64,000 bases of DNA from Planctomycetota bacterium (GTDB lineage Bacteria > Planctomycetota > UBA8108 > SXIK01), in assembly GCA_965223265.1 (NCBI GenBank), contig OZ244999.1, forward strand, positions 6,592,001 to 6,656,000. Reading direction: 5' to 3'. Below are positions 8,417 through 41,784 of this stretch, piece after piece (within the stretch, counting starts at the first letter, position 1; every line of letters starts with the position of its first letter). Below the pieces are notes generated by a model. It had not been told where the DNA came from and did not search any database. It saw nothing but the letters and a program-made list of their open reading frames with translations. Made by a program: the position numbers and the translations under genes.

Positions 8417-8457
8417 CCGTCTCAAGAGCTAGCTTCGAAGCGGTGACGCACGAGGGT

Positions 8458-17137: not shown

Positions 17138-17166
17138 TTGCAAAGCGGTTCGGGCAGGAATAGAAC
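17138..17166 (+). promoter_or_regulatory. possible sigma70 promoter for the PEP-CTERM gene
   Basis: TTGCAA-N17-TAGAAC in an AT-rich intergenic tract. Confidence 0.35.
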
Positions 17167-17263
17167 AGTTCTTACACTTTTGATTCAGAAACGAGGCCCC
17201 GCGACCAAACTCGTGGGGAGTCAAACGAGGCGCCGAGACCCTATTTTGGGCAGGAGGTTTTTT

Positions 17264-20037: not shown

Positions 20038-20077
20038 AAGAAAGCTCAGTTCAACGCCGACTGGCTGGGCTTTCTTA
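20038..20077. terminator. hairpin/terminator between the RNA candidate and the convergent 20075-23332 gene
   Basis: AAGAAAGCTCAG...CTGGGCTTTCTT inverted repeat overlapping the stop codon of the minus-strand gene. Confidence 0.5.
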
Positions 20078-23000: not shown

Positions 23001-23332
23001 CCGTCGCGCCCCGAATCCCACACGGCCGGACCGGACCGCTGGCCGTCGAACTCCTGGGTCACAACGAGCCGCGCCTGCGCCAAGGTCCGTCCGGTGCCCT
23101 TCTGAGCAACCTTCGCCGTCACATCGACGGCCTCTTGTGTGATCGGCTGCGTGAACGGTGTGCCGGCCACCGGCTCGGCGATATCGTCAACCGACTCAGG
23201 GCTCGTGTCCACGACGGCGGAATCCGGAGTCGCCTGCGGCGGCGGCGCATCGCGCAGGAAGATGAAGAAACCGCCAACGACGGCAAGAATGACGACGGCA
23301 CTGATCAGCGCCGCTTTGGTGACCAGGTTCAT
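20075..23332 (-). CDS. membrane-anchored protein with multiple carboxypeptidase-regulatory-like (Ig-like) repeats
   Basis: N-terminal TM; repeated units of the form IxGxVxDxxGxPxxGAxV...TDxxGxFxxxxL..G.Y. Confidence 0.88.
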   Translation of the reverse strand: MNLVTKAALISAVVILAVVGGFFIFLRDAPPPQATPDSAVVDTSPESVDDIAEPVAGTPFTQPITQEAVDVTAKVAQKGTGRTLAQARLVVTQEFDGQRSGPAVWDSGRDGGRDGSFKFQLPPGAFMFHAQCPGFTGERRSVTIVKGTPVELVFELERGNSIAGRVIDEATGAGIGGARVYAFKELSAPGADLEESLIALTELDKMTNYVFSETVTRDDGSYQLDGLEAHWFSIRAIAPGYSPGEVQKVPAPREQVNVALAAGNLVAGTVVESGGGPIEGARVDAFREPRTSAMFEIILAKSRPPVDTVFSDAGGAFQFETLGRGVYNFVISAPGFQNSTQTKIEIESAADLRFELRPGGIISGIVEGPEGEPVAGAKIRYQRIGSSAGGRPDIVAIRFNDDSVQSDQDGRFLLDTLEDGSYNLTVFHPDYESLRRKGLQVGSEDVTLKMGIGGRIAGIVTDIGGNAIPGARIVANDVADLRKEAISDEAGNFLLQGIKVDRRVVNVTVTADGFARQQDKVRVTANQQVEHNFQMEATGVLTGLVVNSNNDPVGGARVMVKKSHQNGSVDYTIANASTDRDGRYTIDSVEANDELWVRVKRSGYLEGISDFFLLESAGAVELPPIVLQLGATIAGRVTANGIPVSGCSVTFRRPGETATTAMNATAQTNADGEYRLQGLESGTVDVVVSHVDYMEAVVSGVAALEGEVQSHVDVELAAGSTLSGRVTNEDGAAVIGAVVIARDFTRGASESRGKTGSDGHFEIKRLATSSTVELEVSHDEYATYLVDQVDVGESLSVVLQALGKVRGVVKDAMGEIVPAFSVHPQPRSKARRARSQLRAQTFNTEDGIFTYERVPAGTYDVQVRAPAFSGATIADVVVETGGIIDLGEIVLKSGGQVNGVIIDAESGEPVFNARVSIVEGVGRFLANVSPSPSGGGGRKTPTQTTDSRGRFSFSDLKGGELTLRIRHPEFVTIEVKANPDLESDSQDLEISLERGGQVSGTVLEPDGTSRANVQVFLIGSDPSMNQSLRTDQQGRFSFNNVVPGDYSVKAHVYASGADRKLRVAEASLTVTSGGGRDVVLELQAQ

Positions 23333-23597: not shown

Positions 23598-26588
23598 TCA
23601 CCTCGCCTTGTTCGGGCTCTCTTGCGCTTCGGACTCTGCCTGGCGCAGAATCTCAGCGGCGCGATCGTGGCCCTGGTCTAGCTCGAGCACCTTGCGCGCG
23701 AACCCCGCCGCACCTCGACGATCACCGCTCGCCAAATAGGCCTCAGCGAGTGCCTCGTAGGAAGCCTGGGGATCGGCGTCGGGATACTTGAGAATCAGGA
23801 GGTGTTCGCGAATGGCCACGTCGTACCTATTGAGCTCCGCCGCCGCCGCGGCAAGCCGCTGATGCAGCTTCAGATCGTACGGCATGACGTAAATCGCCTC
23901 GTTCAGAGCACGAAACACCTTCGAGGCTGCCGCCTTCGTCTCGCCCTCGGCGGACAGGTAGTGCTGGGCGATGAGGAAACGGCACTTACCGTCCTCCGGC
24001 GCATGGCGAGAGAGCTCCTCCAGGTGCACGACCGCCGCCGCAGCGTCATCGTCCTTGTCGAGCTCGAAGAGACGGTAGTAGACGTTCGTGCCGCCGAACG
24101 TTGCGGCCGCGCGCGGCGCCGTTCGTTTCGCTTTCTCATAGTGATCGCGCGCACGTTCGGTGTCCTTCTCAGCGGCGGCGATCTCACCGAGCGCCAGGTG
24201 AGTACGGAACACGAACCTCGTGCCGCCCTCCAGGGCGCGCTCCAACTCCTGACGTGCGGTCTTCGGCTCCTCTGCCTTCAGATGTGCGTGCATACCGAGA
24301 ATGAAGTGAGCGTCTGCGTTGTCGGGATCCTTCTCGAGCACCTTGGCGGCTGTGAACTTCGAGTCCTCTTCAATCGGGCCGTTATTCATCAGATAAGCCC
24401 ACGCCAAGTCGACGAGTTTCTTGGGGTCAGCCTCAATCTCGATGTCGAGCTCCAACGGTGCGATCACGTCGTTGGCAAGCGCTGGTTGATATCCCGTCTC
24501 ACGCGCCCAGGCTTCGATGTAAGCGAAAAAGCGCCGATCGAACTCATCTAGCGAAAGGCTCAGTGCGTCCCGAAAGTTCTCCTCCAACGACTTGTGCTTC
24601 TTGTAACCGTCAAGAATCGCCAAGACGCGATCGAACCCCCACTCCTTCTCGATGAAACGCACGACAAGACAACCCTGAAAGTAGGACATCAGGATCTGAT
24701 TCGGATACTTCGGCTTCGAAAAGCCAAAGTCAAGTTCGCGAATCGGAAGCAAGCGTCCAGACCCGTAGGCGTCAACGACCTCGCGGTCGAAGTTGCGTTC
24801 CCATTCGGGTCGGTCGTGACCCTCTTCGTAGACGCTAAGCCCTTCGGTGAGCCAACGCGGCACGCGATTGTCTGTCATGTTGAGCGTGATCACGTGGGCA
24901 AACTCGTGCCAGGCGACGGCGCCCCAGTTCTGCATCGGTAGGGCGCGCGGGGTCGCCAGCGTGACCAGGTTGCCGAAGCATGCCCCGGCGGCGGCGAGCC
25001 CTTCGAGGCCAATCGTGCGGGCCGAGAACCACTTGTGCGCCGAAAACGCCTCGATATAAACCGGCAGTTTGATCTTCGTCTTATACCGCACGGTCATGCT
25101 GTCGAGAGCCTCTTCCAGCAGCGGCTGTAGGTAGGTCTTGAGCACGTCGTGCTCGGTCTTGGGGACGCGAAACACGAACTGTTCGCTCTCCCAGCTGCTG
25201 TGGTTCTTGTCCATATGCTCGGTCAACAGCCGCGTGTTGAACACCCACGGGTTGAATTTGTCCTGCGCCCACGACTTCTCAAGAAAACTGCGGCCACGCT
25301 CTTCCTCTCCCGTGCGCATACAATTGACGCCGACTGTCGCGTACGCAGGCCAATAGTTTGGGTCCACCTCGAGAGCAAGATCGCAGAACTTCACGGTTTC
25401 GGCGTAGCGGAACTTCGTCTCAATGGCGACAGCGATGGTATGGAAAAACTCAGCGCCGCGCGGATTCAGCTCGAGAGCCTCACTCGCCGCCGCCTCAACG
25501 GCATCCGTTCGCCCCAGTAGGTGATCACACGTGGCCACGAGGCCGCGTGCCCGCAGCGAGCTAGGGTTCAGCTCGACACTACGAACGAAGTCTTTTCTCG
25601 CGGCGTCGAGGCGACCGTCACTCAGCGCGAGGAGTCCCTTTACGAGATGCGCGCGTGCGTGACGTGGGTTCACTTCCAGCGCTCGTTCGACGTATCTCTG
25701 TGCCAGATCGTAGCGCTTGGTTCCGACCTGAAAGTCGACGAGGTAATTGTCGGCCAAGAGGGCTAGAGCGTCCGCACTGTTAGGATTGAGATCGAGAAGA
25801 TCACGGACGCAGTCGCGAGAGTCCGGATAGTTGTACTTATCAAGGAACGCCTGTGCCTGTGCCAGGAGAAGCTCAGGGTTACTATCGTCCTTCTCCTGAG
25901 CTTGCTCGAACATCACTGAATTCGCTTCCTTGTAGCGATTCAACCCGATCAGTGCGCGCCCCATGTCGACCAGCACCTCGGGAGCCATCCGTTCGACATC
26001 TTCGTACGAGGCTTGCTCGTAGATCTCGATGATCTTGTTCCACTCGGTCTCCGCTGCTGCCACGAGGCCTTGGGACGCGAGCGTGCTGCCGAGCCACACG
26101 ATCGACTCGACGTGGCGTGGGTCGATCTCAAGGGCGCGGCGAAACAAAGGCTGCGCCGCCTTCAATTGGCCACGGCGGACGTGCAGCCGGCCGCGGGCTG
26201 CAAGCAGCGTCGGCGAAGAGTCGAACGCTGCGGCCGATTCGAGAACCTTCTCTGCCGACTCGAACTGACCCTGTTCGATCAGTGCCGAAGCCCAAGCTCG
26301 GCGTCCGCGTTCAAGCAAACTGGCCAACGCATCACCGCCAGGCTTCGCTTCCGCGGCGTCCTCGAGCGCGGCGAATCGTTCGACCGCCTCCTCGTAGTCG
26401 CCTTCGAGCAGTGCTGTCGCACCTTCGTCGAAGAGGGCCTTGGGGTCGACATCCGCGGCGACGTTTTCGCCCGCGGCGCACACTGCGTCGCGGATGGTGA
26501 ATCCAAACACGGGCATCATGACAAACGCCATGACGACGACCGACTTGCCGAGCCCCATCGCTTCTCGAAAGCTTCGTTCCTTCATCAT
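23598..26588 (-). CDS. secreted TPR-repeat protein with a peptidase MA-like (gluzincin) domain
   Basis: signal-like N-terminus, TPR repeats, HEFAH...PRWLTEGLSVYEE; start uncertain. Confidence 0.85.
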   Translation of the reverse strand: MMKERSFREAMGLGKSVVVMAFVMMPVFGFTIRDAVCAAGENVAADVDPKALFDEGATALLEGDYEEAVERFAALEDAAEAKPGGDALASLLERGRRAWASALIEQGQFESAEKVLESAAAFDSSPTLLAARGRLHVRRGQLKAAQPLFRRALEIDPRHVESIVWLGSTLASQGLVAAAETEWNKIIEIYEQASYEDVERMAPEVLVDMGRALIGLNRYKEANSVMFEQAQEKDDSNPELLLAQAQAFLDKYNYPDSRDCVRDLLDLNPNSADALALLADNYLVDFQVGTKRYDLAQRYVERALEVNPRHARAHLVKGLLALSDGRLDAARKDFVRSVELNPSSLRARGLVATCDHLLGRTDAVEAAASEALELNPRGAEFFHTIAVAIETKFRYAETVKFCDLALEVDPNYWPAYATVGVNCMRTGEEERGRSFLEKSWAQDKFNPWVFNTRLLTEHMDKNHSSWESEQFVFRVPKTEHDVLKTYLQPLLEEALDSMTVRYKTKIKLPVYIEAFSAHKWFSARTIGLEGLAAAGACFGNLVTLATPRALPMQNWGAVAWHEFAHVITLNMTDNRVPRWLTEGLSVYEEGHDRPEWERNFDREVVDAYGSGRLLPIRELDFGFSKPKYPNQILMSYFQGCLVVRFIEKEWGFDRVLAILDGYKKHKSLEENFRDALSLSLDEFDRRFFAYIEAWARETGYQPALANDVIAPLELDIEIEADPKKLVDLAWAYLMNNGPIEEDSKFTAAKVLEKDPDNADAHFILGMHAHLKAEEPKTARQELERALEGGTRFVFRTHLALGEIAAAEKDTERARDHYEKAKRTAPRAAATFGGTNVYYRLFELDKDDDAAAAVVHLEELSRHAPEDGKCRFLIAQHYLSAEGETKAAASKVFRALNEAIYVMPYDLKLHQRLAAAAAELNRYDVAIREHLLILKYPDADPQASYEALAEAYLASGDRRGAAGFARKVLELDQGHDRAAEILRQAESEAQESPNKAR

Positions 26589-26835
26589 TTCCTTTGATCG
26601 TCTCGCACGCCACGTTGTGTTCTTGTCTTCTTTCAATTTAACCCGAGGTTGGAGAAATGGCGGCGAAAATACGACGGTTCGGGTTCTGGATCACGAAATC
26701 TCTCGGCGACGTGCGAGACCCGTGGACTGCATCACGGGGAAGCCCCCACGGCGCACCAACCCGCCCGCGCTTCGAGTCTCTCACCGTCACTGTACACGGT
26801 CACAGAATTCATTGAGCCTAACGCTTGACAGCCGT

Positions 26836-29438: not shown

Positions 29439-32400
29439 TCAGTTGCACGCAGGAAACGCGCCGCAGTCGAGATCATCCGCCGTCGCATCGCTGCCGCAGG
29501 TCGGATACGGACGTGGCAGGGACGGCTTGCTACCGAAAAGGTGCAGAAGAATCCAGATCGAGTCGGTCACCGTAATGCGACCATCGTCCGTCGTGTCCGC
29601 GGCTTTGCGACAGTCTGGAAACGCACCTTCGCGAAAGAGAAAGTCGAGTCCAAAGATGGCGTCTGCGAGATCCACAAAACCGTCCGAGTTGACATCACCA
29701 CGCCGAAAGCGCGTCACCCCACCGTCGGTGTCAACGCGATCAAACGCGAGCACCTGAGCGGTAACGATCGGGTTCAGGTCTCGGTCGAGGTAGCGTGCGA
29801 TGGCCTGTGGCTTCGTGGGCGGCTGCGGCGCTTCAATTTCCACCGCGAACACCTCCGCGTTCGCGCCCGGAAGACTCAACCCTGAGTCGAATAAGACGCG
29901 ATATGTCACGAACGTGTTGTGCCTAAACGACGCGTACACCAGTCTCCAGTAGTCGACAACACGCTCGTAGACCGCCGCCGCCGCGATTTCGCCGGCAACG
30001 AGGCTGGCTGGCCCCGTGCGATTAGGATCAGCGCTCGGCTCAAAGCGCTCCTCGAGACGGACAACGACGCCGCCTTCGAGAAGAAGTTCGATCTCCCAGA
30101 ACGGCAGTGTCTCGTAGGTACACGAGGCGTATGTGATGCTGAGCGGCGGCTCGGAGTCGAGAAATCCGGTCATGAAAAACGATCCGGCAAGGTGACTCTC
30201 GTCGAAGATGAGCGTCGGCTCGCGCGGCACGTCACCGACGGCGCGAAACTCCAGATCCTGGAGATTGATCTCGAAGCGCGACTCCGGCGCGCTAGCCAGA
30301 GTGAACGCCTGCTCATACGTGTAGCGGTAAATCGTCTCCCCGCCTGTCGACGGCCGCTGCGTGACGCGAAAACGTCCCGCGCTCGCCGGCTGGGCGATCT
30401 CCTGGGTTGGCCCAACGCGGACCTCGTCGATGAGGTCGACGCTGACCGTCCCGGGTCGCCCCTCAAGCACGACCTCGCCGCCCTTGAAACGCACGGTGCT
30501 TTTCGTTGCCAGGGCGATGTCCGGATCTGGATTTGGCGCGTTGACGTCGAGCACACCGCAGACCGTCGTGCCCTCAGGAATCTGTAAAGAAAATATCGGC
30601 GTCGGTGTCGCGTCGGTGGTGAGGAGGAACGGTCGCACCTGCTTGACCGCCAACGAACCGTCTGCCTCGACCTTGAACTCCATGTCGAGCAGGATGTCCT
30701 CGCGATCGCGCCCCCCGAGCGTCACCGGGAAGTTCTGGTCAACGTGCCACATGAATCGTCCGAGTTGTCTCAGCTCGTCGTCCGACATCACGAAACGGTC
30801 TGCAGGGACAAGTGTCGAGCGCGTGGCACGAACGATGTTGACGACTTCGCCGTCCACGACTTCGAGGAGCGACTTCTCTGGCAGCACACCCGGCTCCGGG
30901 CTGACGACGCTCTCCTCGCCGATCTGCGCCGTGACGACGAAACGGTCGTCCCCTGGATTGGCGAGATCCCCCGTGAAAGCAACGCCGTTGGCACGTTCGT
31001 CGATGAACGCGCGGCTCGCGAGGATCCCCATGGCGGCGCTCAACTGCGGGATCTGAAAGAAGGCTCGTTCCTCGTGAGCCCGGAACGTCCAAAGACTCGT
31101 CCATACCTTCTTCAGCGCACGCTCGATCGTTCGTTCGTTTCGATTGCCTGCGTCGCAAATCGATGGCCCGGCGTCGTCGCCGTCCAATTGGTCGGCAAGA
31201 CACGCGCCTGTCGACTCATAGAGGCCCGCGCCGTTGAACTCGAGGAGATCCTCGACGTTCGACGATGATCGAAAGCGCACTTTCGTCTCGCGCCCGAAAA
31301 CTTCCTCCATACGAACAGCGATCAGGTCCAACAAAGATGAGGACACAACGCCGGAATCGCGGGCAAAGTCGCGAAACTCATCAAGTGCAGCAAAACGGCG
31401 GCTCGAGTCCGATTGAAATTCAGGCACAGTGGATAGTTCGGCGAGATACTCCTCGTAGGTCACTTGACGACCGGGATCGAGCGGCGACGGGATCGAATTG
31501 CTGCGCATGAACTCCAGGTAATAGCGCATCGGAATGATGAAGCCACGCTCCTGAAATTCGGTGAACTCCGAGTCAAGAATTGTCTGGAGCCTGGCGAGAT
31601 TGCTGCCCTTGCCGCCGTAGCGCGACTCGGGCGAACTCACCGCCGCGAAATCAATGTCCCGCAGACGGTCAAGGCCGGCGTACTCGGCATCGACAGGGTC
31701 CAGCTCTGAGAGCTTTGGACGATTGGATGCCCAAAACTCCTCTGCCTCAGGAAGTTCGGCAGCACGAACGTCGAAAGTACCAGCCGAAACTTCGAGCCGC
31801 ACCAGTTGACCGTCGTAGGGCTCAAAAACGTCGAGGGCGTTCGCAACGAAAGCGTTCGGCGTACCGCGCCGAGCCGTACGGATTGAAACGTGACTGAGCT
31901 GTCCCTGCGGTGTCCCAGTGATCACACCACCAACAACACCTTCGATGTCGCGGGGTGCCTGGTCAATCACCAGGACATCCTGAAACGTGAAAAGCCCGGC
32001 TTCGTTGGCAGCGCTGAATTCCTCCAGAGTGAGACGCCGCACCCGTCCGTAGCCGACTGCCAGGGTGTACGCTTCATAGTTGCCGCGCGCGGAATCGTCT
32101 TGAAAGAGCACCGGAAAACCTGGGTTGGTCCACTCTTCGGCACGCGCTCGCGCCAGTGGCGTGTCAGGAAGATACGCCAGCGGTTCGAGCGCGAACACGC
32201 CGCTGAGGCGATCGTGCACCGATCTCACTTCAGGCAGATTCAGCGCTTCGGTAGGATCCAGACCGGTATCCGCGACGACCGTAAACGCATAGACAAAGCC
32301 ATCGTCGGCGCGCACGCGCTTCATCGAACCGACGTAGTAATCACGGCTGGCGCGCAGTCCGATCAGCCGGTTGTACTCCTCGGGACCGAGCGCCGGGAAA

Positions 32401-34841
32401 CGTTCGGGAAAGGTCGTAACCAAAAACTCCTGGTGCAGCTGATGGATCGACGTGTTTTGAAACGCCGGCGGCAACAGGTCGGCATCGTCGCGCGCTGGCA
32501 CGACGAACTTGGTCTCCCGCTCTCCGGGCTTCGCGCCGCGCGATGCAATCGCCACATCGAGAAAATCCCGCTGGGTGCAAATACGCGGCAAGAAATCCAG
32601 CGTCGAAGGCGCGCGAGACACATTGAGAAAGGAAATGATCTGATTCTCGGAGCGGTTCACAGCAACGAGGTCGAGGCGCCCGTCGCCGTTCACATCCCCG
32701 GTCGTGGCATAGCGCGGCCCGGTCCGGGGCGGCTCGATCGTAGGTGTCTCAATGAAATAAAAGAGCGGCGTCCGAAACGTGCCGTCGCCGCGGTTGATGA
32801 ACACAGTCAGGTTGAGCGAAAGCTCGTTGACGGTGACAATATCGAGGTGCCCATCACCGTTGTAGTCTCCGGAGGTCATCGTGTACGGCAAGCGAACCGG
32901 GTAAGTGCGCACCGTCTCGAGCCGCATCGCGCCGCGGTTTTCGATGATGGCAAGTTCCGAGCTCGTTTCATTCACCGTCGCCAGATCCTCGTCACCGTCG
33001 CCATCCCAATCGCCGGCAATGACGAAGAACGGTCTTCCGAAAGGGTCGATCGAACCGATATGGGTCAGGGTCCCCAGCGGCGCGTTCTCCAGTATCTCAA
33101 CGCTTCCCGATTGATTTGCTGCCGCCAGATCCAAGTCGCCGTCACGGTCAAGATCGACGGCGACAACGCCGTTAAACCGGCCCGAAATCCTGATCGTCTC
33201 GCTGTTGGCGAACGTCCCATCGCCGCCGTTGCGATAGATGGTGATTGCCGAACCGCTGTTCGCGGTGACGATTTCCGGAAAGCGGTCACCGTCGAGGTCA
33301 GCGGAGATCGAGTAGAATGGATCCCGGCTGCCAAGGTACGTCTCTCGTGACGCAAAGCTCTGACCGTCGTAGTTAAGAAAGACTTCGATCTTGATGTCGA
33401 AAAGGAACGGGACCACGAAATCGAGCTGACCGTTCTGATCGAAGTCATCGACACTGGCCGCATTCAGATAGCCGTCCGACCTATCGGTGTAGCCGATCGA
33501 GAACGCTCCATTTCCGTCGTTTTCGGCGAGAGTGATGAGTCCGCCAGCTCCATGGCCCATGATGGCGTCCACGTCGCCGTCACCGTCGATGTCGCCGAGC
33601 GCCGGCGGGCTGTGCGGTCGGCCGCCGGCACCGTACGTCGTACTCACGAAACTCGTCTCTCGGCCGCTGACGAGGATTCCGAGCGCATCCGAACGCGTCT
33701 TGCCGGTCGCAATGTCAACACCACCGTCACCGTTCAGGTCGGCGATCGCGAGGCTCTGCGAAACGCCCTCGATCGGGAAACTGACGTGAGCTCGCAGTGA
33801 GCCAGATTCGTTGATGATGGCGGCGACTTCACGCGTCGGCAATCCGGCGACAACGTCCGTGTCACCGTCACCGTCGACGTCACCAAGTTCGAAGTGAGTC
33901 GCATCCAGGCGAAACACCGACGCTAAGGCCAACGATCGGTCGGAGCTTGACACCGAGATCACGTGGATACCTTCGCCGCCGAGGACGAGAAGTTCGGGCG
34001 CTTCGTCGCCGCTGAGGTCTGCGGCCCGCACCGCGCGGGCGTCGGCGGTGGCGACCGACTCCGCCCCCCGCTCGAAACCGCTCTCCGTGTTCCACAGAAC
34101 GGCTACCCGTCCGCCCTCAACCAGCGCGATGTCCGGGCGCCCGTCGCCGTCCAGGTCGGACGCCATCATCGCCGCCGGCACCCCTCCTGCGTCCACCGCC
34201 TCCGTCGCAAAACCACGCTCGGGCTGACGGCGCACGAGTGAGAGCTGAGTCGAGTCGGCGTGCGACACGATGATGTCCGTATCGCCGTCGGCATCAAAGT
34301 CGGCGGACGACATCAGGAGACCGCCGATCAGCGCCACCAGATCGGCGTCGCGCGGATACGTTCGTTCGCCGTCGTTCCAAACAAAAAAAACGCCCTCGGC
34401 CCCAAGGCTGGCCACGTCGAGCTCGCCGTCGGCATCGAAATCTCCCACACTGATCTCGAACGTATCCGCGCCAACACGGCGGTAGACGGGGGTGCCGAGA
34501 TCGCCGATCTCGTCTTGATAGAAGATGCCGATCGTGCTACCCGCGGGTCCGAGGCTGGCACTGAGGAGATCCTCCCGGCCGTCGCCGTCGAAGTCACGGG
34601 TTACGACGCGGCGCGGCAGACCGCGCTGCTGAAGCCGTGGCACCGAAAGACCGAACTGGAGTAAGTCCAGCTCGCACTCATCGGGGAACCCGTTGCCGTT
34701 GCAATCCTCGGACACCGAGCTCGAGACGTCGACGGTGTCGTCCGCGCCGTTGCCGTTGCAGTCGGCCGCAGAAACGAACGGAGCCGCCACGAAAAACAAC
34801 CCGAACACGGCGAAGTTGATATTGGCGCCGATGCGTAGCAA
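29439..34841 (-). CDS. secreted FG-GAP-repeat protein with phosphohistidine and PPDK_N/ATP-grasp dikinase domains and a C-terminal dockerin-like module
   Basis: GGAGG RBS plus TTG at 34841; signal peptide; many DxDGDGxxD repeats; LSHVSIR; GGKGSNL; RSSSNVED..NGAGLYES; KQVRP; RRGDVNSDGFVDLAD. Confidence 0.88.
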   Translation of the reverse strand: MLRIGANINFAVFGLFFVAAPFVSAADCNGNGADDTVDVSSSVSEDCNGNGFPDECELDLLQFGLSVPRLQQRGLPRRVVTRDFDGDGREDLLSASLGPAGSTIGIFYQDEIGDLGTPVYRRVGADTFEISVGDFDADGELDVASLGAEGVFFVWNDGERTYPRDADLVALIGGLLMSSADFDADGDTDIIVSHADSTQLSLVRRQPERGFATEAVDAGGVPAAMMASDLDGDGRPDIALVEGGRVAVLWNTESGFERGAESVATADARAVRAADLSGDEAPELLVLGGEGIHVISVSSSDRSLALASVFRLDATHFELGDVDGDGDTDVVAGLPTREVAAIINESGSLRAHVSFPIEGVSQSLAIADLNGDGGVDIATGKTRSDALGILVSGRETSFVSTTYGAGGRPHSPPALGDIDGDGDVDAIMGHGAGGLITLAENDGNGAFSIGYTDRSDGYLNAASVDDFDQNGQLDFVVPFLFDIKIEVFLNYDGQSFASRETYLGSRDPFYSISADLDGDRFPEIVTANSGSAITIYRNGGDGTFANSETIRISGRFNGVVAVDLDRDGDLDLAAANQSGSVEILENAPLGTLTHIGSIDPFGRPFFVIAGDWDGDGDEDLATVNETSSELAIIENRGAMRLETVRTYPVRLPYTMTSGDYNGDGHLDIVTVNELSLNLTVFINRGDGTFRTPLFYFIETPTIEPPRTGPRYATTGDVNGDGRLDLVAVNRSENQIISFLNVSRAPSTLDFLPRICTQRDFLDVAIASRGAKPGERETKFVVPARDDADLLPPAFQNTSIHQLHQEFLVTTFPERFPALGPEEYNRLIGLRASRDYYVGSMKRVRADDGFVYAFTVVADTGLDPTEALNLPEVRSVHDRLSGVFALEPLAYLPDTPLARARAEEWTNPGFPVLFQDDSARGNYEAYTLAVGYGRVRRLTLEEFSAANEAGLFTFQDVLVIDQAPRDIEGVVGGVITGTPQGQLSHVSIRTARRGTPNAFVANALDVFEPYDGQLVRLEVSAGTFDVRAAELPEAEEFWASNRPKLSELDPVDAEYAGLDRLRDIDFAAVSSPESRYGGKGSNLARLQTILDSEFTEFQERGFIIPMRYYLEFMRSNSIPSPLDPGRQVTYEEYLAELSTVPEFQSDSSRRFAALDEFRDFARDSGVVSSSLLDLIAVRMEEVFGRETKVRFRSSSNVEDLLEFNGAGLYESTGACLADQLDGDDAGPSICDAGNRNERTIERALKKVWTSLWTFRAHEERAFFQIPQLSAAMGILASRAFIDERANGVAFTGDLANPGDDRFVVTAQIGEESVVSPEPGVLPEKSLLEVVDGEVVNIVRATRSTLVPADRFVMSDDELRQLGRFMWHVDQNFPVTLGGRDREDILLDMEFKVEADGSLAVKQVRPFLLTTDATPTPIFSLQIPEGTTVCGVLDVNAPNPDPDIALATKSTVRFKGGEVVLEGRPGTVSVDLIDEVRVGPTQEIAQPASAGRFRVTQRPSTGGETIYRYTYEQAFTLASAPESRFEINLQDLEFRAVGDVPREPTLIFDESHLAGSFFMTGFLDSEPPLSITYASCTYETLPFWEIELLLEGGVVVRLEERFEPSADPNRTGPASLVAGEIAAAAVYERVVDYWRLVYASFRHNTFVTYRVLFDSGLSLPGANAEVFAVEIEAPQPPTKPQAIARYLDRDLNPIVTAQVLAFDRVDTDGGVTRFRRGDVNSDGFVDLADAIFGLDFLFREGAFPDCRKAADTTDDGRITVTDSIWILLHLFGSKPSLPRPYPTCGSDATADDLDCGAFPACN

Positions 34842-35091
34842 AAAACCCTCCCGCGGTGACGTGAATATGCCTCTTGTTCGCCCGACCAGGCGCACGACCC
34901 CCCACGAGTCTCTCGGCTCCCCCGTCCATTCGACAAGAGTGCATCGTACCGGATCAACGGCGCGTTTCCGAGTCGGTTTTGCCTCGGTACGGATCGACGC
35001 CGCGACGCAGCTGACACACCCGCTCAAGAAACGAATTCACGAACTAGCGCAAGAACCGTCACGCGGTCGGAGCCGTCGTCGGCGCGGTTAA

Positions 35092-35251
35092 CAGCCCGTT
35101 GAAAAAGTCATTCGGCCGAAGAAACTGGCCTCTTCACGCCCAGCTCGACCGCGTCAATACTCGAAAATCCCGAAGATTGCCTGCGTTTGCCGCGGCCGAT
35201 CTGGACGCGAAGAGACCAGTTTTCGGCTCGAAGCACTTTTTCAACAGGCTG
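35092..35251. mobile_element. MITE-like hairpin element, copy 2 (160 bp)
   Basis: terminal inverted repeats CAGCCCGTTGAAAAAGT / ACTTTTTCAACAGGCTG; flanked by TTAA at 35088-35091 and 35252-35255. Confidence 0.88.
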
Positions 35252-38200
35252 TTAAGTGTGCGTTCAGCCTGTCAGCGATGCACTCAAGGTTTTCCGCCGC
35301 CAGAACCTCGTGGTGAGACCCCGCAACGGAAACAACCGTGACGCCCCCGGAAGCGACTTCGCCCCAGCCGAGATCGGGACGGTCGCGGTTGATCCATGCC
35401 ACCTCCTCGGCTCGGAAGAGCACAACCTGCCCGTCATAGATGCCCGGTCGATAGCGTTTTCGGGCCGGGCGTGTGACGCACTCGAAGAAGTGCTCGGCCT
35501 CGAGCTTCACCGGGAGACTTCGGCCGAGTCGGTGACACAACTCACCACCCGCAAGAAGCGCGAGACGGCGCAGACGCTGACGTGCGGCGCGCGCCGATGT
35601 CGTGAGATTGCCAACACCGCTTCGCAGCAGATACCCGAACTTCGCAGTCGGAGATAGCGCATCCAGTGCTTGCGCGTGCTGCTTCCAGTCCGTTCGGCGC
35701 AAAAACGCGCTCGGCAAACTCGTGTCCAGTACCGCGAGCAAAGACACTCCGCAGCCTCGGCTACGGAGTTGCCGAGCCATTTCGAGCGCGACGAGCCCGC
35801 CAAACGAGTAACCGCACAATCGGTACGGTTCAAGCGGAGGAACGCGCGTCACAAGCTCGTCGACGTAGAGCGCTGCGAGTGCCTCGACGGTTGCCGGTCG
35901 TGCGTCTAAAAATGCCCGCATCGGCGGCTGAACCGCAAGGACAGGAACGCCCTCCTCGAGACGTTTCGCCAACTCGACGTAGTGGTGAACGCGCCCCTTG
36001 CCGCAGTGAACACAAATGAGCGGCGATCGATCGCCCCCGTCGCGCAGCGGCACGAGGATCTCAGTCGACGACGAGCGCGATCTTGATCGAGCGGACGAAG
36101 CGGATGGAGGGGAGGATTGCGTGACATCGAGCGCCGCAGCCATCCCCTCCAGTGCGGGCGACTGAAACACGGAGGCCAATGACAGCTCCGCTCGGAACTC
36201 GCGCTTGACGTGCCGAACGAGCTCCAGCGCCAGAAGAGAGTGACCGCCAAGCTCAAAGAAGTCATCCGCTATGCCGACGCGCTCGACCCCAAGCAAATGA
36301 CACCAAATCGTCGCGAGCCGCCGCTCGGTCTCGCTCCGCGGCGGCTCGAACCGGCGCGCCCCAACGCGAGTACCGGCGAGTCCGCCCGAGCGGTCGACTC
36401 GTGTGCGGTCGCCGGTCTCGAGGTCGTCTGCCGAGTCGCAAATCGCGGGCAGTGCACGTCGGTTCACTTTCATGCTGGTTGTCAGCGGCAATGACTCGAG
36501 CTGGACGTAGTGCGACGGGATCATCACGGTCGACAGTTTCGTGCGCAGAAACTCGTCCAGTTGGCGCGATGTCGGGACGACGCCAGCTGCAGTGACGAAG
36601 TAGGCAGCGAGGCGTCCTCCATGTGCGTCTGGCCACAGACGAAGTGCCGCCGCATCGATCGATTCATGTTCGCAAAGCGCTTCTTCGATGGGGGCAACGT
36701 CGACGCGCTGGCCGCGCACCTTGACCTCGAGACCAAGTCGCTGGAGGACCTCGATGCCGCCGTCCGGACGCGCCCTGCCGTCGTCACCAGTGTTCAAGCT
36801 GCGCCGCGTGGACTTTGCTCGCGGCCTTTCCGACGCCGAGGAGCATTCCCCGCGTCCCAACCAAGCGTGAGGCGATGCCGCCAAGAATTCCGACTCGACG
36901 CAGATCTGGCCACGAATGTCGGTCTCGTCGCCGGTCGCATTTCGTAGGGACATGCGCACTCCTCTCACAGCTTCGCCAATCGAGAGTCGCTCGCGTCGCA
37001 CGTCGCTGGTGTGACTGTACCGTGCCCAGCTGACGAGCGAGCACTCCGTGGAACCGTAGAGGTTAAACAGTGTGCAGTCGCTTGCCGTCACCGCACGGAA
37101 AACATCGAAGTCTGCACGCGTCGCTGGTTCTCCGCCAAGGACCACGGCACGCAGCGAACTTTGAACCAGATCCGCCCCATCGCGAGACCCTAACGCTGTT
37201 TGCTCGCGATCGGCGGACGATCGTGAACTCCACAGCGCGCGGAAGACCGTCGGCGTTGAGTGAAACACCGTCACATTGGCGTTCGAGATCCATGCCTCGA
37301 GTTCCGTCGCGCCATCTGTGTCGAAGCCCCAAGGTAGTAGCTCTGCGCCAGCGAGGAGGGCGCCGAAGGTATCGAGAAGAAACGCGTCGAAAGTGTAGGC
37401 TGCGAGGAGAAGGAAACGGTCGCTCGGACGCGCGTCGAGCATGCGCTGGTAGTTGTCGACGTGGTGTAGGAGCGCTCGCTCGCTTTGCACCACTGCTTTC
37501 GGCGCCGCGGTCGATCCGGATGTATACAACAGGTACGCGGGTCGATGGTCGCGATGGTCGCGATGGCCAGCCACCGCCTCAGCCGACGTGCTCGCTTCAA
37601 GAATTTGGTCGCAGATGATGACTGTGCGCCCCGCCCCAGCCGCTTGGCGCGCCAGCGCCTCGTGCGCGGAGTCAGCGATGACGAGCTCGGCGTCGGCGTC
37701 GGAAAGTATGGCGGCGAGACGCTCACGGGGCTCCTTTGTGTGCATCGGCACGAACGTCTTGCCCGCTTTGACGACCCCTAGAAGAACCGCTACCATCGGC
37801 GCGTCGTGCTCAAGAAGGAGCGCCACGCGGCCGTCGCGATCACCAAGGCGATCATGAACTGCAGCGGCAACGGCTGTCGAGCGACGATCCAGCTCGTCGT
37901 ACGACCAACGGTAGCGCGGACTCCTGACCGAGCCGCGGGGACCGTGTTTTCGCACGACCTCCGCGAATCTCTCGGCGATCGACGCTTGGCCGCACGGCCG
38001 TTCATTCTTGTTTGCTGCAACCGCCGCCAAGGGTTGGTTCTGCGAAGTCGACGCGAGAGACGCGATCGCGACACTGGAATCCACCACCGCCGCACAAAGC
38101 AGTCTCTGGTATTGAGCGAGAAGCCATTCCACGGTCTCAGGCTCGTAGCGCTCGCGGCGAAATCGGCAGACGCACTCAAGTCCGGCGCTGGTGTGTTCGA

Positions 38201-39503
38201 AGGCGAATTCGAGATCGAGTCGTGCGAACGGCGACTCCAGCTCAACACGCTCCATACGCAAGCCGCTCTCGCTCGCCAGCGCCTGAGGATAGTTCCGCAG
38301 CTGCAGAGATACCTGCGCGAGCCCATGGTCTGCTGCAGTGCCGTTCGGCCGCGCCGCTTCAACGATCTTCTCAAACGGTAAGTGCGCGTGCTCGTAGACG
38401 CCGAGGGCTACCTGGCGAACGCGCCCGAGGAATTCGGCGAAGGATGGCTCGCCAGCCGCATCAAGGCGCAGGATGACGGTGTTGACGAAAAAGCCGATCA
38501 TCTCTTCGGTCTCGAGGAGCGATCGACCGGCGACCGGAGTCTCGATCCGGAGATCCGTCTCGCGTGTCTGATGCGTCAGGAGCACTCCGAGTCCTGCAGC
38601 GAGTGCCATGAAAAGCGTGGCTTCCCGCTCCGCCGCTAGCTGCGTGAGCTGCTCTGCGAATCGACGCGGCCACGTCACTCTCACCGCAGACCCGGCCGCC
38701 GCCGACTCTGTTCCGGACGTGCGCAGCGAGGATCGATCTGCAGCGACGTCGAGCGCCACTGCAGGTCTGTCCAGGTAGCGGCTCCAAAACGCCACTGAGT
38801 CTCGCATCGAAGCATCCGCGACGAACTGTCGGCGCTGCCACGCGGCGAAATCGGCGTACTGCAGCTTCTGCCTTTCGAGCTCGATCGTGTCGCCCCGAGC
38901 GAGCACGTGATAGGCGCGGTTCAGTTGGTCGACAAAGAGATTCCACGACCAGCCGTCGAAAACGCTGTGATGCGCGACAATCACTAGCATGTGAGCGTTC
39001 CGTTCGAGCTGCAGCAGACAGCCGTGGATGAGAGGTCCTTCGGCAAGCGAGATTCGCTGACGTGCAAGCGCCTGGGCTTCCTGCGTGCACGCCGCGTCGC
39101 GCTCCGCGACCGGCACCGACGTGAGATCGACATCGCGCAGGACAAACTCAACGCTCGGCTTGACGAGCTGCACGGGCAAAGAGTCGCTGTCGTGATACAC
39201 CGTACGCAGAATGTCGTGACGCGTGAGCAGCGTGTTGAGACTCTCCTTGAGGACATCGCGCTGGAGATCGCCGCTGAGTCGTAGCCCTCGCAGCGTGTTG
39301 TAGACGATCGCTCCAGGGTCGATCTGGTCGAGCAACCAGAGGCGCTGCTGACCGAAGGAGAGCAAGGCCGGTTCGTCGGGAGGACGCGCAGTTAGGGCGA
39401 CAACTCGTGGCTGTCCGCTGTCACGCTTTGCCTTTAACCGCGCCAAGAGCTGCGACCGCTGCTGAGGTGACAGTCGCGCCAGACGCGCGTCGAGATCACT
39501 CAC
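35241..39503 (-). CDS. single-module NRPS (C-A-T-TE)
   Basis: LSFGQQRLW, HHSVFDG (C); YTSGST, NLYGSTE (A); FFELGGHSL (T); GYSFGG (TE); GGGAGG RBS before GTG at 39503. Confidence 0.92.
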   Translation of the reverse strand: MSDLDARLARLSPQQRSQLLARLKAKRDSGQPRVVALTARPPDEPALLSFGQQRLWLLDQIDPGAIVYNTLRGLRLSGDLQRDVLKESLNTLLTRHDILRTVYHDSDSLPVQLVKPSVEFVLRDVDLTSVPVAERDAACTQEAQALARQRISLAEGPLIHGCLLQLERNAHMLVIVAHHSVFDGWSWNLFVDQLNRAYHVLARGDTIELERQKLQYADFAAWQRRQFVADASMRDSVAFWSRYLDRPAVALDVAADRSSLRTSGTESAAAGSAVRVTWPRRFAEQLTQLAAEREATLFMALAAGLGVLLTHQTRETDLRIETPVAGRSLLETEEMIGFFVNTVILRLDAAGEPSFAEFLGRVRQVALGVYEHAHLPFEKIVEAARPNGTAADHGLAQVSLQLRNYPQALASESGLRMERVELESPFARLDLEFAFEHTSAGLECVCRFRRERYEPETVEWLLAQYQRLLCAAVVDSSVAIASLASTSQNQPLAAVAANKNERPCGQASIAERFAEVVRKHGPRGSVRSPRYRWSYDELDRRSTAVAAAVHDRLGDRDGRVALLLEHDAPMVAVLLGVVKAGKTFVPMHTKEPRERLAAILSDADAELVIADSAHEALARQAAGAGRTVIICDQILEASTSAEAVAGHRDHRDHRPAYLLYTSGSTAAPKAVVQSERALLHHVDNYQRMLDARPSDRFLLLAAYTFDAFLLDTFGALLAGAELLPWGFDTDGATELEAWISNANVTVFHSTPTVFRALWSSRSSADREQTALGSRDGADLVQSSLRAVVLGGEPATRADFDVFRAVTASDCTLFNLYGSTECSLVSWARYSHTSDVRRERLSIGEAVRGVRMSLRNATGDETDIRGQICVESEFLAASPHAWLGRGECSSASERPRAKSTRRSLNTGDDGRARPDGGIEVLQRLGLEVKVRGQRVDVAPIEEALCEHESIDAAALRLWPDAHGGRLAAYFVTAAGVVPTSRQLDEFLRTKLSTVMIPSHYVQLESLPLTTSMKVNRRALPAICDSADDLETGDRTRVDRSGGLAGTRVGARRFEPPRSETERRLATIWCHLLGVERVGIADDFFELGGHSLLALELVRHVKREFRAELSLASVFQSPALEGMAAALDVTQSSPPSASSARSRSRSSSTEILVPLRDGGDRSPLICVHCGKGRVHHYVELAKRLEEGVPVLAVQPPMRAFLDARPATVEALAALYVDELVTRVPPLEPYRLCGYSFGGLVALEMARQLRSRGCGVSLLAVLDTSLPSAFLRRTDWKQHAQALDALSPTAKFGYLLRSGVGNLTTSARAARQRLRRLALLAGGELCHRLGRSLPVKLEAEHFFECVTRPARKRYRPGIYDGQVVLFRAEEVAWINRDRPDLGWGEVASGGVTVVSVAGSHHEVLAAENLECIADRLNAHLTAC

Positions 39504-39519
39504 GATCACCCTCCCGGAC

Positions 39520-41562
39520 TCAGACGGTCCGGACTTCACTTTGATCGCCGGCGTCAAGCTGGTCGCCGCCGAGCAAGCGCTCGAGCTCGTCCGGAGACAG
39601 CTGCTCGAGTTCTGAAGCGAGGGCCTCGATCTCGCCTCCGATCACGACCGCATCCGAAGCATCGGGACGCGCTTCGCCCGTCGATTGGCCAAGCTCGTCT
39701 AGCGCGGCAGCGAATTCGTGCAGTTTCGGTGTGACGAAAAAGAGTCGAATCGGGGCGGCCTCGAATCCGGTTTGCTGCAATCGCGCGAGGATGCGAGCGG
39801 CGCGGATCGAGTCGCCACCGAGCTCGAAGAAGTGATCGTTTCGTCCCACCGAGTCGATGCCGAGAGCGTCCTTCCAAAGCCCAGCGAGCAGAGTCTCGGT
39901 CGGAGTTCCCGGGGGAACGAAGGAACTCGCTCCGTCTGACGCGTCGGTGATCCCCAGTCGCTCGGCCAGACCGATTCTCTGCAGTTTTCCGGTCGGCCCT
40001 TTCGGGATGTCATCGACGAAGATCAAGCGCTTCGGCGTCTTAAACGACGATAGCCGCTCGAGGAGGAACTCTCGCAGCTCGGTTTCCGTCGGCGAGGACT
40101 GGGACGCAAGGACAACCGCCGCCGCAACCTCTTCGCCAAGCGCTGCATGCGGTACCCCGAACGCAACAGCCTGCCGTACGCCTGGATGGCTGAGGAGCGC
40201 TTCGTCGATCTCGCGTGGGGCAATCGTCTCGCCGCCGCGGTTAATGATCTCCTTGAGTCGGCCGGTGAGAAAGAGATACCCGTCGGCGTCGAAATACCCC
40301 TGATCCCCGGTGCGAAACCACCCGTTCTCAAACGCTGCGGTGTGCGCCGACACTTTGCCGCCACTTGTACCGTTGTCACCGTCGATGCTGGCATGCTCCA
40401 CATGGACATTGCCACTGGCCGCAGCAACGTCGTCAACCGGGACCACGTATCCGGACATGACGTTCTCGCCCCGGATGACAACCTCGCCGACTTCTCCCTG
40501 GGGCAAAAGGCGTCCGTCGCCGCCCATGATCGACACGTCAGGGCCTTGCGAGATCCCGACCGAACCCGGCTTGCGCGCTGCTGGCGGCAGAGGGTTCGAG
40601 CACATCTGATGCGCCGCTTCGGTCATGCCGTACGCTTCGACCACCGGGGCACCGAAGACCTGCTCGAGCTCCCTCATGACTGCGGGCGGTAGTGATGCCG
40701 ACGACGAACGAATCAATCGAAACGGCGCCGCAGAAGAAAGCGCATTTGGGTCGTCGCGGAGCGTCGACAGAATCGCCTGATGCATCGTCGGCACCGCCGT
40801 ATACCAGCTAGGACAAAGCTCGTCGACCCAGTCCGTAAATCGTTCGGCCGAGAATCCCGGCGTACAGACAACACAGCCGCCGGCATGAAGTGACGCCAAG
40901 AGTGCCGCCACAATTCCATGAATGTGGAAGAGCGGCATGATATTGAGACACGTGTCTTGCGGCGACAGGGCCAACGTCGCTGCAACGTTGCGCGCCGAAG
41001 CGCAAAGGTTCGCCTGCGACAGCGGCACGATTTTTGGCCTCGACGTCGTGCCGGAGGTGTGCAGTACGAGCGCCGTATCGCTAGCACATGGCAAACCCGC
41101 GCTCGATGCGCCAGCGTGCAGTCTCCCGTCGGTAGTGAGCTCGAAAGTTCCGGCGGCAGCGTCTGGATCGGCCTTCACGCGCAGGACGCGGATGCCGCGT
41201 GCGGCGGCGACCTCCACCGCAGGGGAATCGTCACCGGCCGCGACGACCAGCGCCTTGGCTTTCAGATCATGCAAATAGAAGTCGAATTCAGGCGCCCGGT
41301 AACGCGGATTGAGGGGCGCGCTGACGCTGTGACTCGCAACCGCGAGCAGGGTGGCGGCCATCTCCGGACCGTTGTCGAGAGCCAAGGCGACCGAATCGGC
41401 GGCGCCGATACCGGCAGCTCTGAGTGCTGCACCGGCCGCTTGCACGTGCTCCCACAGCATGCGGTAGGAGGAGGGGGCACGGCCCGGAGCAGTGATGGCG
41501 ATGGCGCCGGGCTGCAGCCGCGCTTGCCGTTCGAGGAGTTCCGCTAACGTCGTGTGATCCAA
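39520..41562 (-). CDS. acyl-adenylate ligase (oxalate-CoA ligase-like) fused to a carrier protein domain
   Basis: LHTSGTTSRPK, MPLFHIHG, WYTAVPTMHQ, EAYGMTEAAHQMCSNPLPP, KGPTGK; carrier motif FFELGGDSI; GGAG RBS plus TTG at 41562. Confidence 0.88.
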   Translation of the reverse strand: MDHTTLAELLERQARLQPGAIAITAPGRAPSSYRMLWEHVQAAGAALRAAGIGAADSVALALDNGPEMAATLLAVASHSVSAPLNPRYRAPEFDFYLHDLKAKALVVAAGDDSPAVEVAAARGIRVLRVKADPDAAAGTFELTTDGRLHAGASSAGLPCASDTALVLHTSGTTSRPKIVPLSQANLCASARNVAATLALSPQDTCLNIMPLFHIHGIVAALLASLHAGGCVVCTPGFSAERFTDWVDELCPSWYTAVPTMHQAILSTLRDDPNALSSAAPFRLIRSSSASLPPAVMRELEQVFGAPVVEAYGMTEAAHQMCSNPLPPAARKPGSVGISQGPDVSIMGGDGRLLPQGEVGEVVIRGENVMSGYVVPVDDVAAASGNVHVEHASIDGDNGTSGGKVSAHTAAFENGWFRTGDQGYFDADGYLFLTGRLKEIINRGGETIAPREIDEALLSHPGVRQAVAFGVPHAALGEEVAAAVVLASQSSPTETELREFLLERLSSFKTPKRLIFVDDIPKGPTGKLQRIGLAERLGITDASDGASSFVPPGTPTETLLAGLWKDALGIDSVGRNDHFFELGGDSIRAARILARLQQTGFEAAPIRLFFVTPKLHEFAAALDELGQSTGEARPDASDAVVIGGEIEALASELEQLSPDELERLLGGDQLDAGDQSEVRTV

Positions 41563-41784
41563 GTGACGTCTCCATCTGCTGACTATGCGATGGAGAAGGA
41601 TAGGATGCGGAAGCCGCGGCAGCGAAGAGGTCGACGATGTTATCGAGCCTCCGGGGCGGGCGAATCGGCGCGCCGGGAGCCACGCCGTCACACGCACGAC
41701 GTCGAACGCCTGGGGTGCGGATGTCACACCGTGACGACGAAGAGCGACAACGGAGCCGCCACGGCCCTCGAAGTAAGCGGCCGG

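Follow-up and report, generated by a model that had tools for sequence, protein, structure and literature searches.

A planctomycete protein predicted to be an exported swivelling-histidine dikinase with the domain order of the plant glucan water dikinase

The window analyzed here is a stretch of 64,000 nucleotides from a Planctomycetota bacterium (GenBank assembly GCA_965223265.1, contig OZ244999.1, positions 6,592,001 to 6,656,000 of the forward strand). A gene on its minus strand, at 29439..34841, encodes a protein of 1800 amino acids (aa). With a probability of about 0.55, we propose that this protein is an exported swivelling-histidine dikinase, built in the order of the plant glucan water dikinase (GWD), that phosphorylates a polymeric target outside the cytoplasm. 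A match to the Pfam model PPDK_N above the cut-off, the predicted folds, and the residues kept across the family together place the protein in the superfamily of swivelling-histidine dikinases. Its core has the GWD domain order, and the conserved nucleotide-site residues and the phospho-accepting histidine are all present.

The gene is single and intact, with 1800 codons, a stop and a TTG start, and has the extent given in a preliminary description of this DNA. It lies within a longer open reading frame (ORF) listed at 29439..35027 on the minus strand, whose first 62 codons lack support: this upstream extension has no relatives, and the starts of the paralogs agree with the TTG at 34841. A Shine-Dalgarno-like GGGAGGG was read about 4-5 bases upstream of this TTG, and a database protein of 1800 aa (P0002) is 100% identical to the gene product and starts at the same codon. 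Residues are numbered below as in the ORF translation (P0001); numbers in the 1800-aa protein are lower by 62, and the catalytic His1046 is thus His984 of that protein. The features of the gene are the following.

29439..34841, minus strand: whole gene (ORF list, translation, start context, identity to P0002)
34846..34852, minus strand: Shine-Dalgarno-like GGGAGGG (read from the sequence)
34764..34841, minus strand: Sec-type signal peptide, residues 63-88, with predicted cleavage at VSA/A or SAA/D
34668..34763, minus strand: two DCNGNG...D calcium-type motifs and three Cys, residues 89-120 (motif scan)
32583..34640, minus strand: FG-GAP region of 14 repeats, residues ~130-815 (Pfam and calcium motifs)
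32088..32552, minus strand: N-domain, a small alpha/beta domain, residues 826-980 (AlphaFold2 models)
31728..32087, minus strand: phosphohistidine domain, a swivelling beta/beta/alpha fold, residues 981-1100 (Foldseek)
30609..31622, minus strand: ATP-grasp domain, PPDK_N, residues 1136-1473 (Pfam, E 9.3e-13)
29718..30596, minus strand: unk2, a domain of about 300 residues between the ATP-grasp domain and the tail, residues 1478-1770
29523..29702, minus strand: dockerin-like pair of calcium loops, residues 1776-1835 (phmmer matches)
29442..29522, minus strand: Cys-rich C-terminal tail, with three Cys in the last 19 residues (translation, Cys positions)

The Pfam scan of the protein, read at E<=0.01, returned FG-GAP_3 (E 4.7e-60), FG-GAP (E 2.2e-30) and PPDK_N (E 9.3e-13, residues 1136-1473), and nothing else. 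It gave no match to PEP-utilizers (PF00391) or to the barrel model PEP-utilizers_C (PF02896), in agreement with the earlier statement that the PEP/pyruvate TIM barrel is absent. The similarity to PEP synthase in NCBIfam is weak (E 7.9e-5, 20.9 bits against a cut-off of 598 bits). All the motifs quoted in the preliminary description are found in the translation: QLSHVSIR with His1046 (codon at 31890-31892), GGKGSNL at 1138, RFRSSSNVED at 1251, NGAGLYES at 1265, KKVWTSLW at 1306, ANGVAFT at 1346, DMEFK at 1448 and KQVRP at 1462.

Key residues of these motifs are kept almost throughout the family. For the counts that follow, 331 proteins of the family were aligned with a profile built from 38, and each residue was scored over the sequences covering its column. 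His1046 is kept in 320 of the 323 relatives, Lys1140 of the GGK motif in 324/326 and Arg1253 of RSSS in 329/331, and Glu1450, Gln1463 and Arg1465 are each found in 325/325. The conserved Lys, Arg, Glu and Gln of the ATP-grasp domain are presumably the ligands of the nucleotide and of Mg, as they are in PPDK, and the alignment with PEP synthase is consistent with this assignment. Two cysteines are kept almost as strictly (Cys1276 in 327/331 and Cys1291 in 327/329). They are separated by 14 residues within an Asp/Gly-rich insertion of ~19 residues relative to PEP synthase (window about 31155-31202, minus strand), and this loop may be a disulfide or a calcium loop specific to the exported family.

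The predicted structures agree with the assignment of the two catalytic domains. The AlphaFold2 (AF2) model of the 665-residue core has a pLDDT of 89.1 and a pTM of 0.75, and that of the N-domain plus the His domain has a pLDDT of 92.5 and a pTM of 0.79. The ATP-grasp domain, which is of the type found in PEP synthase (PEPS), PPDK and rifampin phosphotransferase (RPH), reached PEPS 8a8e in a profile search of the PDB (E 4.5e-9). Its Foldseek matches in the PDB are RPH 5hv1 (E 1.5e-16), PEPS 2ols (4.1e-12), HpeI 9goj (5e-11) and PPDK 1kbl (4.5e-7). The His domain, which comprises seven strands and three to four helices in the models, matches RPH 5hv2 (E 5.5e-5, 115 columns, root mean square deviation 3.4), PPDK 5jvj (1.3e-4), the carrier domain of PPDK 2fm4 (7.6e-3), Enzyme I 1zym (1.9e-2), and other swivelling beta/beta/alpha proteins. 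The Foldseek comparison with RPH that the preliminary description had proposed thus bears out both the phosphohistidine domain and the ATP-grasp domain. In the model, the catalytic His stands at the head of a short helix (221-229), an arrangement shared with the known enzymes. Sequence searches of the PDB differed in their reach: the C-terminal 903 residues used as a single sequence gave weak dockerin matches only, whereas the family profile reached PEPS, RPH and PPDK.

In Pfam, the His domain has matches below threshold only, to a model of the plant enzyme. GWD1_pHisD (PF22973) aligns with the window protein over the stretch holding the His, at E 0.19 and 11.8 bits for a cut-off of 27 bits. 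At E<=1, it is found in 16/38 relatives of one set (best E 6.3e-4) and in 23/65 of another (best E 3.7e-3), in all cases below the threshold. It is the only Pfam model of a His domain matched by the relatives (39/103), and PF00391 matched none of the same 103. A search of the Atlas with the core offers a lead only: of the 30 nearest named clusters, 27 are bacterial and carry PPDK_N only, one includes PEP-utilizers in 26% of its members, one bacterial cluster has GWD1_pHisD in 15% of its members, and the cluster at rank 30 (score 0.90) is from Streptophyta, with PPDK_N, with GWD1_pHisD in 100% and with CBM_20 in 12% of its members.

Directly ahead of the His domain stands the N-domain, ~150 residues long, for which the models show five strands and four helices. 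No specific match to it was seen among the ~50 Foldseek rows listed from the PDB. It is present in every family member, and in domain numbering H40, Y60 and G75 are invariant, while K15, P19 and R70 are nearly so. Its position, its presence in all forms, and its conserved His, Tyr, Lys and Arg make it the candidate acceptor site.

Several other regions flank this core. The FG-GAP region had been recognized from its many repeats, and the Pfam matches given above fully agree. It carries fourteen calcium-type Dx[DN]xDG motifs between residues 145 and 778, of which 13 fit the pattern and one, near 337, is degenerate. Since these fourteen motifs are spaced by ~48 residues, the region probably folds as two seven-bladed propellers. 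The DCNGNG...D motifs that precede it are kept at the mature N-terminus of the paralogs. In unk2, a YW.L.Y.A..H motif is conserved, with HHN in the relatives that were read. It matched no Pfam model, the corresponding part of the family profile gave no sequence match in the PDB, and its search of the Atlas gave scores of 0.80, which is the noise level. It is present in the forms of ~1000-1100 aa and ~1800 aa and absent from those of ~700 aa.

The dockerin-like tail is the least secure part of the domain assignment. For the dockerin announced in the preliminary description, the only direct matches of the window protein are those to solved type I dockerins (phmmer E 0.028-0.23, residues 1776-1835), which take in both calcium loops. 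Dockerin_1 matches 10/38 aligned relatives at the same position of the tail, and Pfam gave no such match in the window protein itself. The Cys-rich end that follows has a similar counterpart in the short forms of the family.

The window protein is predicted to be exported, and the signal peptide announced at the true start was recovered as a hydrophobic leader at the supported TTG. The N-terminus has an n-region with one Arg, a hydrophobic core of 16 residues, and V-S-A-A before Asp89. All 29 long paralogs start with a hydrophobic leader followed by xDCNxNG, and the short and minimal relatives read all have signal or lipoprotein leaders. To put a number on this, we scored a hydrophobic stretch as a 10-mer with a mean Kyte-Doolittle value of at least 2.0 within the first 45 residues. 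Such stretches occur in 243 of the 280 N-complete members, as against 349 of 7773 internal 45-residue windows (4.5%) of the same proteins, and several of the leader-negative members are visibly mis-started or borderline. A lipobox-like motif is found in 57/86 forms of at most 820 aa and in 20/194 longer ones.

The company kept by the core points to the same compartment. The partner domains in 29 variant architectures include FG-GAP, Lcl_C (8 proteins), lamin-tail (9), BNR_2 with dockerin, CHAT (one protein), and, together in one protein of 3336 aa, CHB_HEX_C_1, Fn3_assoc, beta-helix, fn3 and TSP3. We take most of these domain types to be extracytoplasmic. Some minimal forms have EGF-like Cys-rich leaders. 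The almost invariant Cys pair in the ATP-grasp insertion of the family is a further point in favor of export.

The family is large and widespread. With residues 1000-1500 as the query, 7998 candidates were scored and 350 relatives, 1024-3259 aa long, were obtained; in a second search, 8000 were scored and 465 shorter relatives emerged. An exhaustive profile search of 1.84 billion representatives gave 5655 proteins at E<=1e-3, of which 3059 reach E<=1e-10 and 1852 reach E<=1e-30; every one of the 150 listed from this search belongs to the family, and among them are proteins of 3336 and 6419 aa. In a collection with a single genome for each species, a relative is encoded by at least 558 of the 574 candidate stretches, with a best identity of 56%. 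The 79 loci that we kept come from Planctomycetota, Verrucomicrobiales, Omnitrophota, lineages of Myxococcota, Anaerolineae, Caldilineae, Sumerlaeia and Kiritimatiellae. At the source, the relatives bear generic names: FG-GAP-like or VCBS repeat-containing protein, as the full-length ones are called, as well as PEP/pyruvate-binding domain-containing protein and pyruvate, water dikinase.

Four architectures recur. Forms of ~1800 aa have the leader, the propellers, the core, unk2 and the dockerin-like tail; forms of ~1070-1100 aa have all of these except the propellers; forms of ~1000 aa have the leader, the core and unk2, with no dockerin; and the minimal forms of ~700-770 aa consist of the leader, N-domain, His domain and ATP-grasp domain only. 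Hence, the N-domain, the His domain and the ATP-grasp domain make up the invariable core. The minimal relatives lack propellers altogether, which excludes these as the catalytic acceptor site. The core is also embedded in giant proteins, such as P0299 (3336 aa, with beta-helix, CHB_HEX_C_1, Fn3, lamin-tail and TSP3 as extra domains), P0300 (6419 aa), and the product of an ORF at 779-11632 of locus L071 (3617 aa).

The family is also highly multicopy within a genome. Of the 120 matches listed from the search for long relatives, all of them family members, 30, including the window protein, are recorded on a contig of 9,179,496 bp, which is most simply read as all 30 lying on one chromosome. The nearest core comes from another source for 8 of the 30. 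The mean pairwise identity of the 29 long paralogs is 43%, and it varies strongly along the protein: the mean is 0.31 in the propellers, the most variable region, 0.41 in unk2, 0.47 in the N-domain and 0.52 in the dockerin-like tail, and it reaches 0.58 in the His domain and 0.62 in the ATP-grasp domain, which are the best conserved.

Some paralogs are mosaics. In P0012, P0013 and P0017, and in the pair P0039 and P0040, the cores are 94-100% identical from the N-domain to the tail, whereas the propellers are 36-41% identical, with a sharp break near residues 740-780, at the border between propeller and core. P0055 shares with P0056 and P0058 His and ATP-grasp domains that are 100% identical, with an identity of 48% in unk2 and 60% in the tail. 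Over the eight mosaic paralogs named here, the propellers are 34-41% identical. These patterns imply that the modules are exchanged or homogenized independently, and suggest cassette exchange or gene conversion. The window copy is not such a mosaic, its nearest relative (P0003) being 50-75% identical to it throughout.

The mechanism that we propose follows from homology. The ATP-grasp domain would bind a nucleoside triphosphate, His1046 would take the beta-phosphate while the gamma-phosphate goes to water, and the His domain would then swing to the N-domain that directly precedes it, where the phosphate would be passed to a hydroxyl of the acceptor. All this would take place beyond the cytoplasmic membrane, either in the periplasm or on the surface of the cell. 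The role of the propellers, unk2 and the dockerin-like tail would be to position the enzyme on a target, or keep it there; this target would be a polymer, with a glycan or other surface polymer as the likeliest kind, and the paralogs would have one chemistry and differing targets. We favor a polymer as the acceptor because the targeting modules vary while the core is kept. The nucleotide could be leaked or released by cells, or come from a periplasmic supply that has not been described. The preliminary description had offered, as a way around the need for external ATP, that the enzyme runs in reverse. Phosphomonoesters cannot phosphorylate histidine, and the reverse reaction is chemically unattractive.

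Several points weigh against this proposal. The chief objection is that we know of no pool of ATP outside the cytoplasmic membrane of bacteria. The polymeric acceptor is a putative one, and Pfam finds no carbohydrate-binding module in the window protein. The N-domain is without a recognizable relative, and its acceptor role is drawn from its position and conservation only. Export is argued from sequence heuristics, and the putative Cys1276-Cys1291 disulfide from the conservation of the two residues. All matches to GWD1_pHisD lie below the Pfam cut-off, and the catalytic His is lost in 3 of the 323 relatives. Finally, the clustering of ORFs around the 79 loci revealed no common partner beyond closely related syntenic loci from metagenome-assembled genomes. 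The absence of a conserved partner across these loci means that there is no conserved neighboring phosphatase, transporter or cohesin, although no search was aimed at cohesins.

Among the other explanations, the one that deserves most attention, while still unlikely, is a small-molecule phosphotransferase. Like RPH, phenolic phosphate synthetase and HpeI, the core would act on a soluble compound with hydroxyl groups, such as an antibiotic, a phenolic or a signal, in the periplasm or at the surface, with the propellers serving only as an anchor. The structural matches of the ATP-grasp domain speak for it, with RPH (1.5e-16) and HpeI (5e-11) ahead of PPDK (4.5e-7), and an N-domain of ~150 residues would suit a small ligand. 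Relatives of RPH are reported to phosphorylate diverse polyphenols (PMC13553574). Yet the domain order is unlike that of RPH, whose substrate domain has no match among the Foldseek rows listed, the hypervariable propellers of at least 30 paralogs suggest that the targets are large or diverse, and the problem of ATP is unchanged. This last problem would be solved if the protein were an effector directed at prey or host and used the ATP of another cell after lysis or delivery. The family is common in Myxococcota and Omnitrophota, lineages described as predatory or host-dependent. PPDK_N is reported among the 20 commonest domains of the giant proteins of Omnitrophota, in a preprint whose title links these giants to predatory cell-wall attack (bioRxiv 10.1101/2023.11.21.568195). 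Against this, the Pfam scans show no domain for translocation or toxin delivery, no conserved neighbor resembles an immunity gene, and the lipoprotein anchoring of the minimal forms and the dockerin tails suggest that the protein is retained on its producer. The family is also found in Chloroflexota and Verrucomicrobiales, of which we know no described predators. We consider such an effector improbable.

It is a little less probable still that the protein scavenges or senses nucleotides, with water as the sole acceptor, turning external ATP into AMP and two phosphates or reporting the nucleotide. In dikinases of this type, water is already the recipient of the gamma-phosphate, and no acceptor domain would be needed. 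A heading in the GWD1 paper states that ATP consumption by that enzyme is influenced by its carbohydrate-binding modules (PMC13553574). However, a conserved N-domain, with its invariant His and Tyr and near-invariant Lys and Arg, occupies the position of the acceptor domain of GWD1, dozens of paralogs with variable propellers would be hard to explain, and simpler phosphatases and nucleotidases do this job. The remaining two explanations have very little in their favor. If the core were a pseudoenzyme, or a binding module without catalysis, on an adhesin of the surface, this would fit the adhesin-like propellers and dockerin-like tail and the three relatives that lost the His, but more than 98% of 323-331 relatives, from several phyla, retain the catalytic and nucleotide-site residues, and the catalytic domains are the best conserved among the paralogs. 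The least credible is an ordinary cytoplasmic relative of PEP synthase or PPDK with a mis-called start. It has on its side the weak NCBIfam similarity (20.9 against 598 bits, E 7.9e-5) and the name pyruvate, water dikinase given to some relatives. Against it stand the reversed order, the lack of PEP-utilizers and PEP-utilizers_C domains, the upstream 62 residues that have no relatives, the agreement of the database and paralog starts with the TTG at 34841, and the presence of FG-GAP calcium sites and of a dockerin-like tail.

The surroundings of the gene in the window show no evidence of a functional link with it. The dikinase-type module occurs only once within the 64 kb, and a scan for promoters and terminators gave no signal above shuffled expectation. 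Long ORFs on the opposite strand or in other frames inside 29439-34841, of up to 486 aa (e.g. 31890-33350, plus strand), are shadow frames of a gene with 60% G+C and not genes. Immediately upstream and on the same strand, Pfam identifies a C-A-T-TE non-ribosomal peptide synthetase (35241-39557) and an adenylation-carrier protein (39520-41727), whose ORFs overlap by 38 bases; this pairing with the dikinase gene is not kept beside relatives elsewhere. On the downstream side, the neighbors are a hypothetical protein and an RNase HII-like gene. Further large envelope-type proteins lie nearby: one of 1085 aa with about eleven CarboxypepD_reg-like domains (20075-23332, minus strand) and, adjoining it, one of 1012 aa with TPR and Peptidase_MA_2 (23598-26636, minus strand). 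A small protein at 17138-17890 (plus strand) has a PEP-CTERM sorting motif (Pfam E 5.7e-8). At 61202-63583 (plus strand) is a secreted-looking protein of 793 aa with a weak match to the G8 domain. Its C-terminal tail, inspected by eye, has two calcium loops and a Cys-rich end like those of the dikinase gene, which suggests a sorting or docking module common to both in this genome.

Around the relatives, nine of the 79 loci (L005, L006, L008, L009, L010, L018, L031, L037 and L077) have a leader-bearing protein of 256-296 aa ~44-160 bases downstream of the family gene and on the same strand. These nine loci share several flanking gene clusters, and this protein was not seen in the other 70. One further cluster of neighboring ORFs was discarded, as its members are shadow ORFs opposite the family gene and not a partner.

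The known swivelling-histidine dikinases work in the cytoplasm or in plastids. The catalytic machinery described here is an established one. What would be new is a GWD-type order in bacteria, new domains on the acceptor side, and an extracytoplasmic location. We know of no prokaryotic counterpart with the GWD order that has been described, and our literature searches found no report of one, nor a paper on an exported, FG-GAP-linked or dockerin-linked dikinase. A wider claim, which we advance only tentatively and consider rather doubtful, is that these proteins open a widespread new class of extracytoplasmic, ATP-driven dikinases acting on polymers in the periplasm or at the cell surface, which would imply a supply of nucleotide outside the cytoplasmic membrane in Planctomycetota, Myxococcota, Omnitrophota and other groups. 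As their domain order is otherwise specific to plants and their His domain is GWD-like, they would on this view also be the bacterial sister or source of GWD and of the phosphoglucan water dikinase (PWD). The scale of the family, its export signals, its extracellular-type partners and its intact ATP site contradict the textbook view that there are no ATP-dependent enzymes outside the bacterial cytoplasmic membrane. If the enzyme is active there, it would represent a new kind of modification of extracellular polymers by phosphorylation, the question of ATP in the periplasm or at the surface would become directly testable, and the origin of the plant starch dikinases would have a candidate bacterial relative. 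In plants, phosphorylation by GWD loosens starch granules. With apparently at least 30 copies in one genome, and propellers exchanged on near-identical cores, the family also offers a natural model for how modules are shuffled among surface proteins.

Four known systems come closest to the window protein. With the planctomycete FG-GAP or VCBS-repeat proteins that bear dockerin-like tails, it shares the signal peptide, the calcium-binding propellers and the tail; their automatic names ignore the dikinase core of ~1000 residues, which also occurs without a propeller. With PEPS and PPDK, it shares a homologous ATP-grasp domain and the fold of the His domain, but these enzymes have the ATP-grasp domain at the N-terminus, with the His domain and then the PEP/pyruvate TIM barrel behind it. 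The best structural matches of both its ATP-grasp and its His domain are RPH of Listeria (5HV1, 5FBS) and relatives, which include the phenolic phosphate synthetase of Bacillus and HpeI of Rhodococcus (9GOJ); common to them is water-dikinase chemistry with a swivelling His. RPH is cytoplasmic and is built in the order of ATP-grasp, substrate domain and His domain, whereas the His domain stands ahead of the ATP-grasp domain here; the rifampin-binding domain has no similarity among the Foldseek rows listed.

The closest in plan are the plant and algal enzymes GWD1 and PWD (EC 2.7.9.4 and 2.7.9.5). Potato GWD1 is described as consisting of CBM45_1, CBM45_2, an all-helical central domain (483-926), a His domain (931-1050, with three helices, seven strands and His992) and an ATP-binding domain (1069-1387), in an order said to differ dramatically from that of PPDK and RPH (PMC13553574). 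The structure solved in that paper is of the central domain only, and a 2026 review states that no high-resolution structure of a GWD or PWD exists (PMC12892837). The window protein itself is not a GWD: it lacks CBM45 and CBM20 in Pfam, as do all of 103 relatives, and has propellers instead, and it is predicted to be exported. The domain ahead of its His domain is alpha/beta and of ~150 residues, as against 444 all-helical residues in GWD1, whose central domain (9HA9) was absent among the ~50 Foldseek rows listed. The signal peptide, two putative propellers, unk2, the dockerin-like tail and the Cys-x14-Cys insertion also distinguish it from GWD and PWD, and its family is bacterial and highly multicopy.

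The likeness to GWD and PWD claimed in the preliminary description thus fails for these parts and holds for the order and for the LSH motif, and the matches to GWD1_pHisD lie below threshold. In the window protein as in GWD1 and PWD, the His domain directly precedes the ATP-grasp domain and a PEP/pyruvate barrel is lacking; potato GWD1 is reported to have this His-then-ATP-grasp order, which is unlike those of PPDK and RPH (PMC13553574). In both the window protein and GWD1, a domain on the acceptor side, putatively so in the window protein, is joined directly ahead of the His domain. In both, the His domain is made up of some seven strands and three to four helices, and the catalytic His starts a short helix. 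The residues V989 and L990 that precede His992 are reported as highly conserved in GWD1 (PMC13553574), and the LSH context agrees with L990 and H992, an L-S pair preceding the His here. Finally, the ATP-binding domain of GWD1 is reported to superpose better on RPH than on PPDK (PMC13553574), and the ATP-grasp domain of the window protein likewise resembles that of RPH more than that of PPDK.

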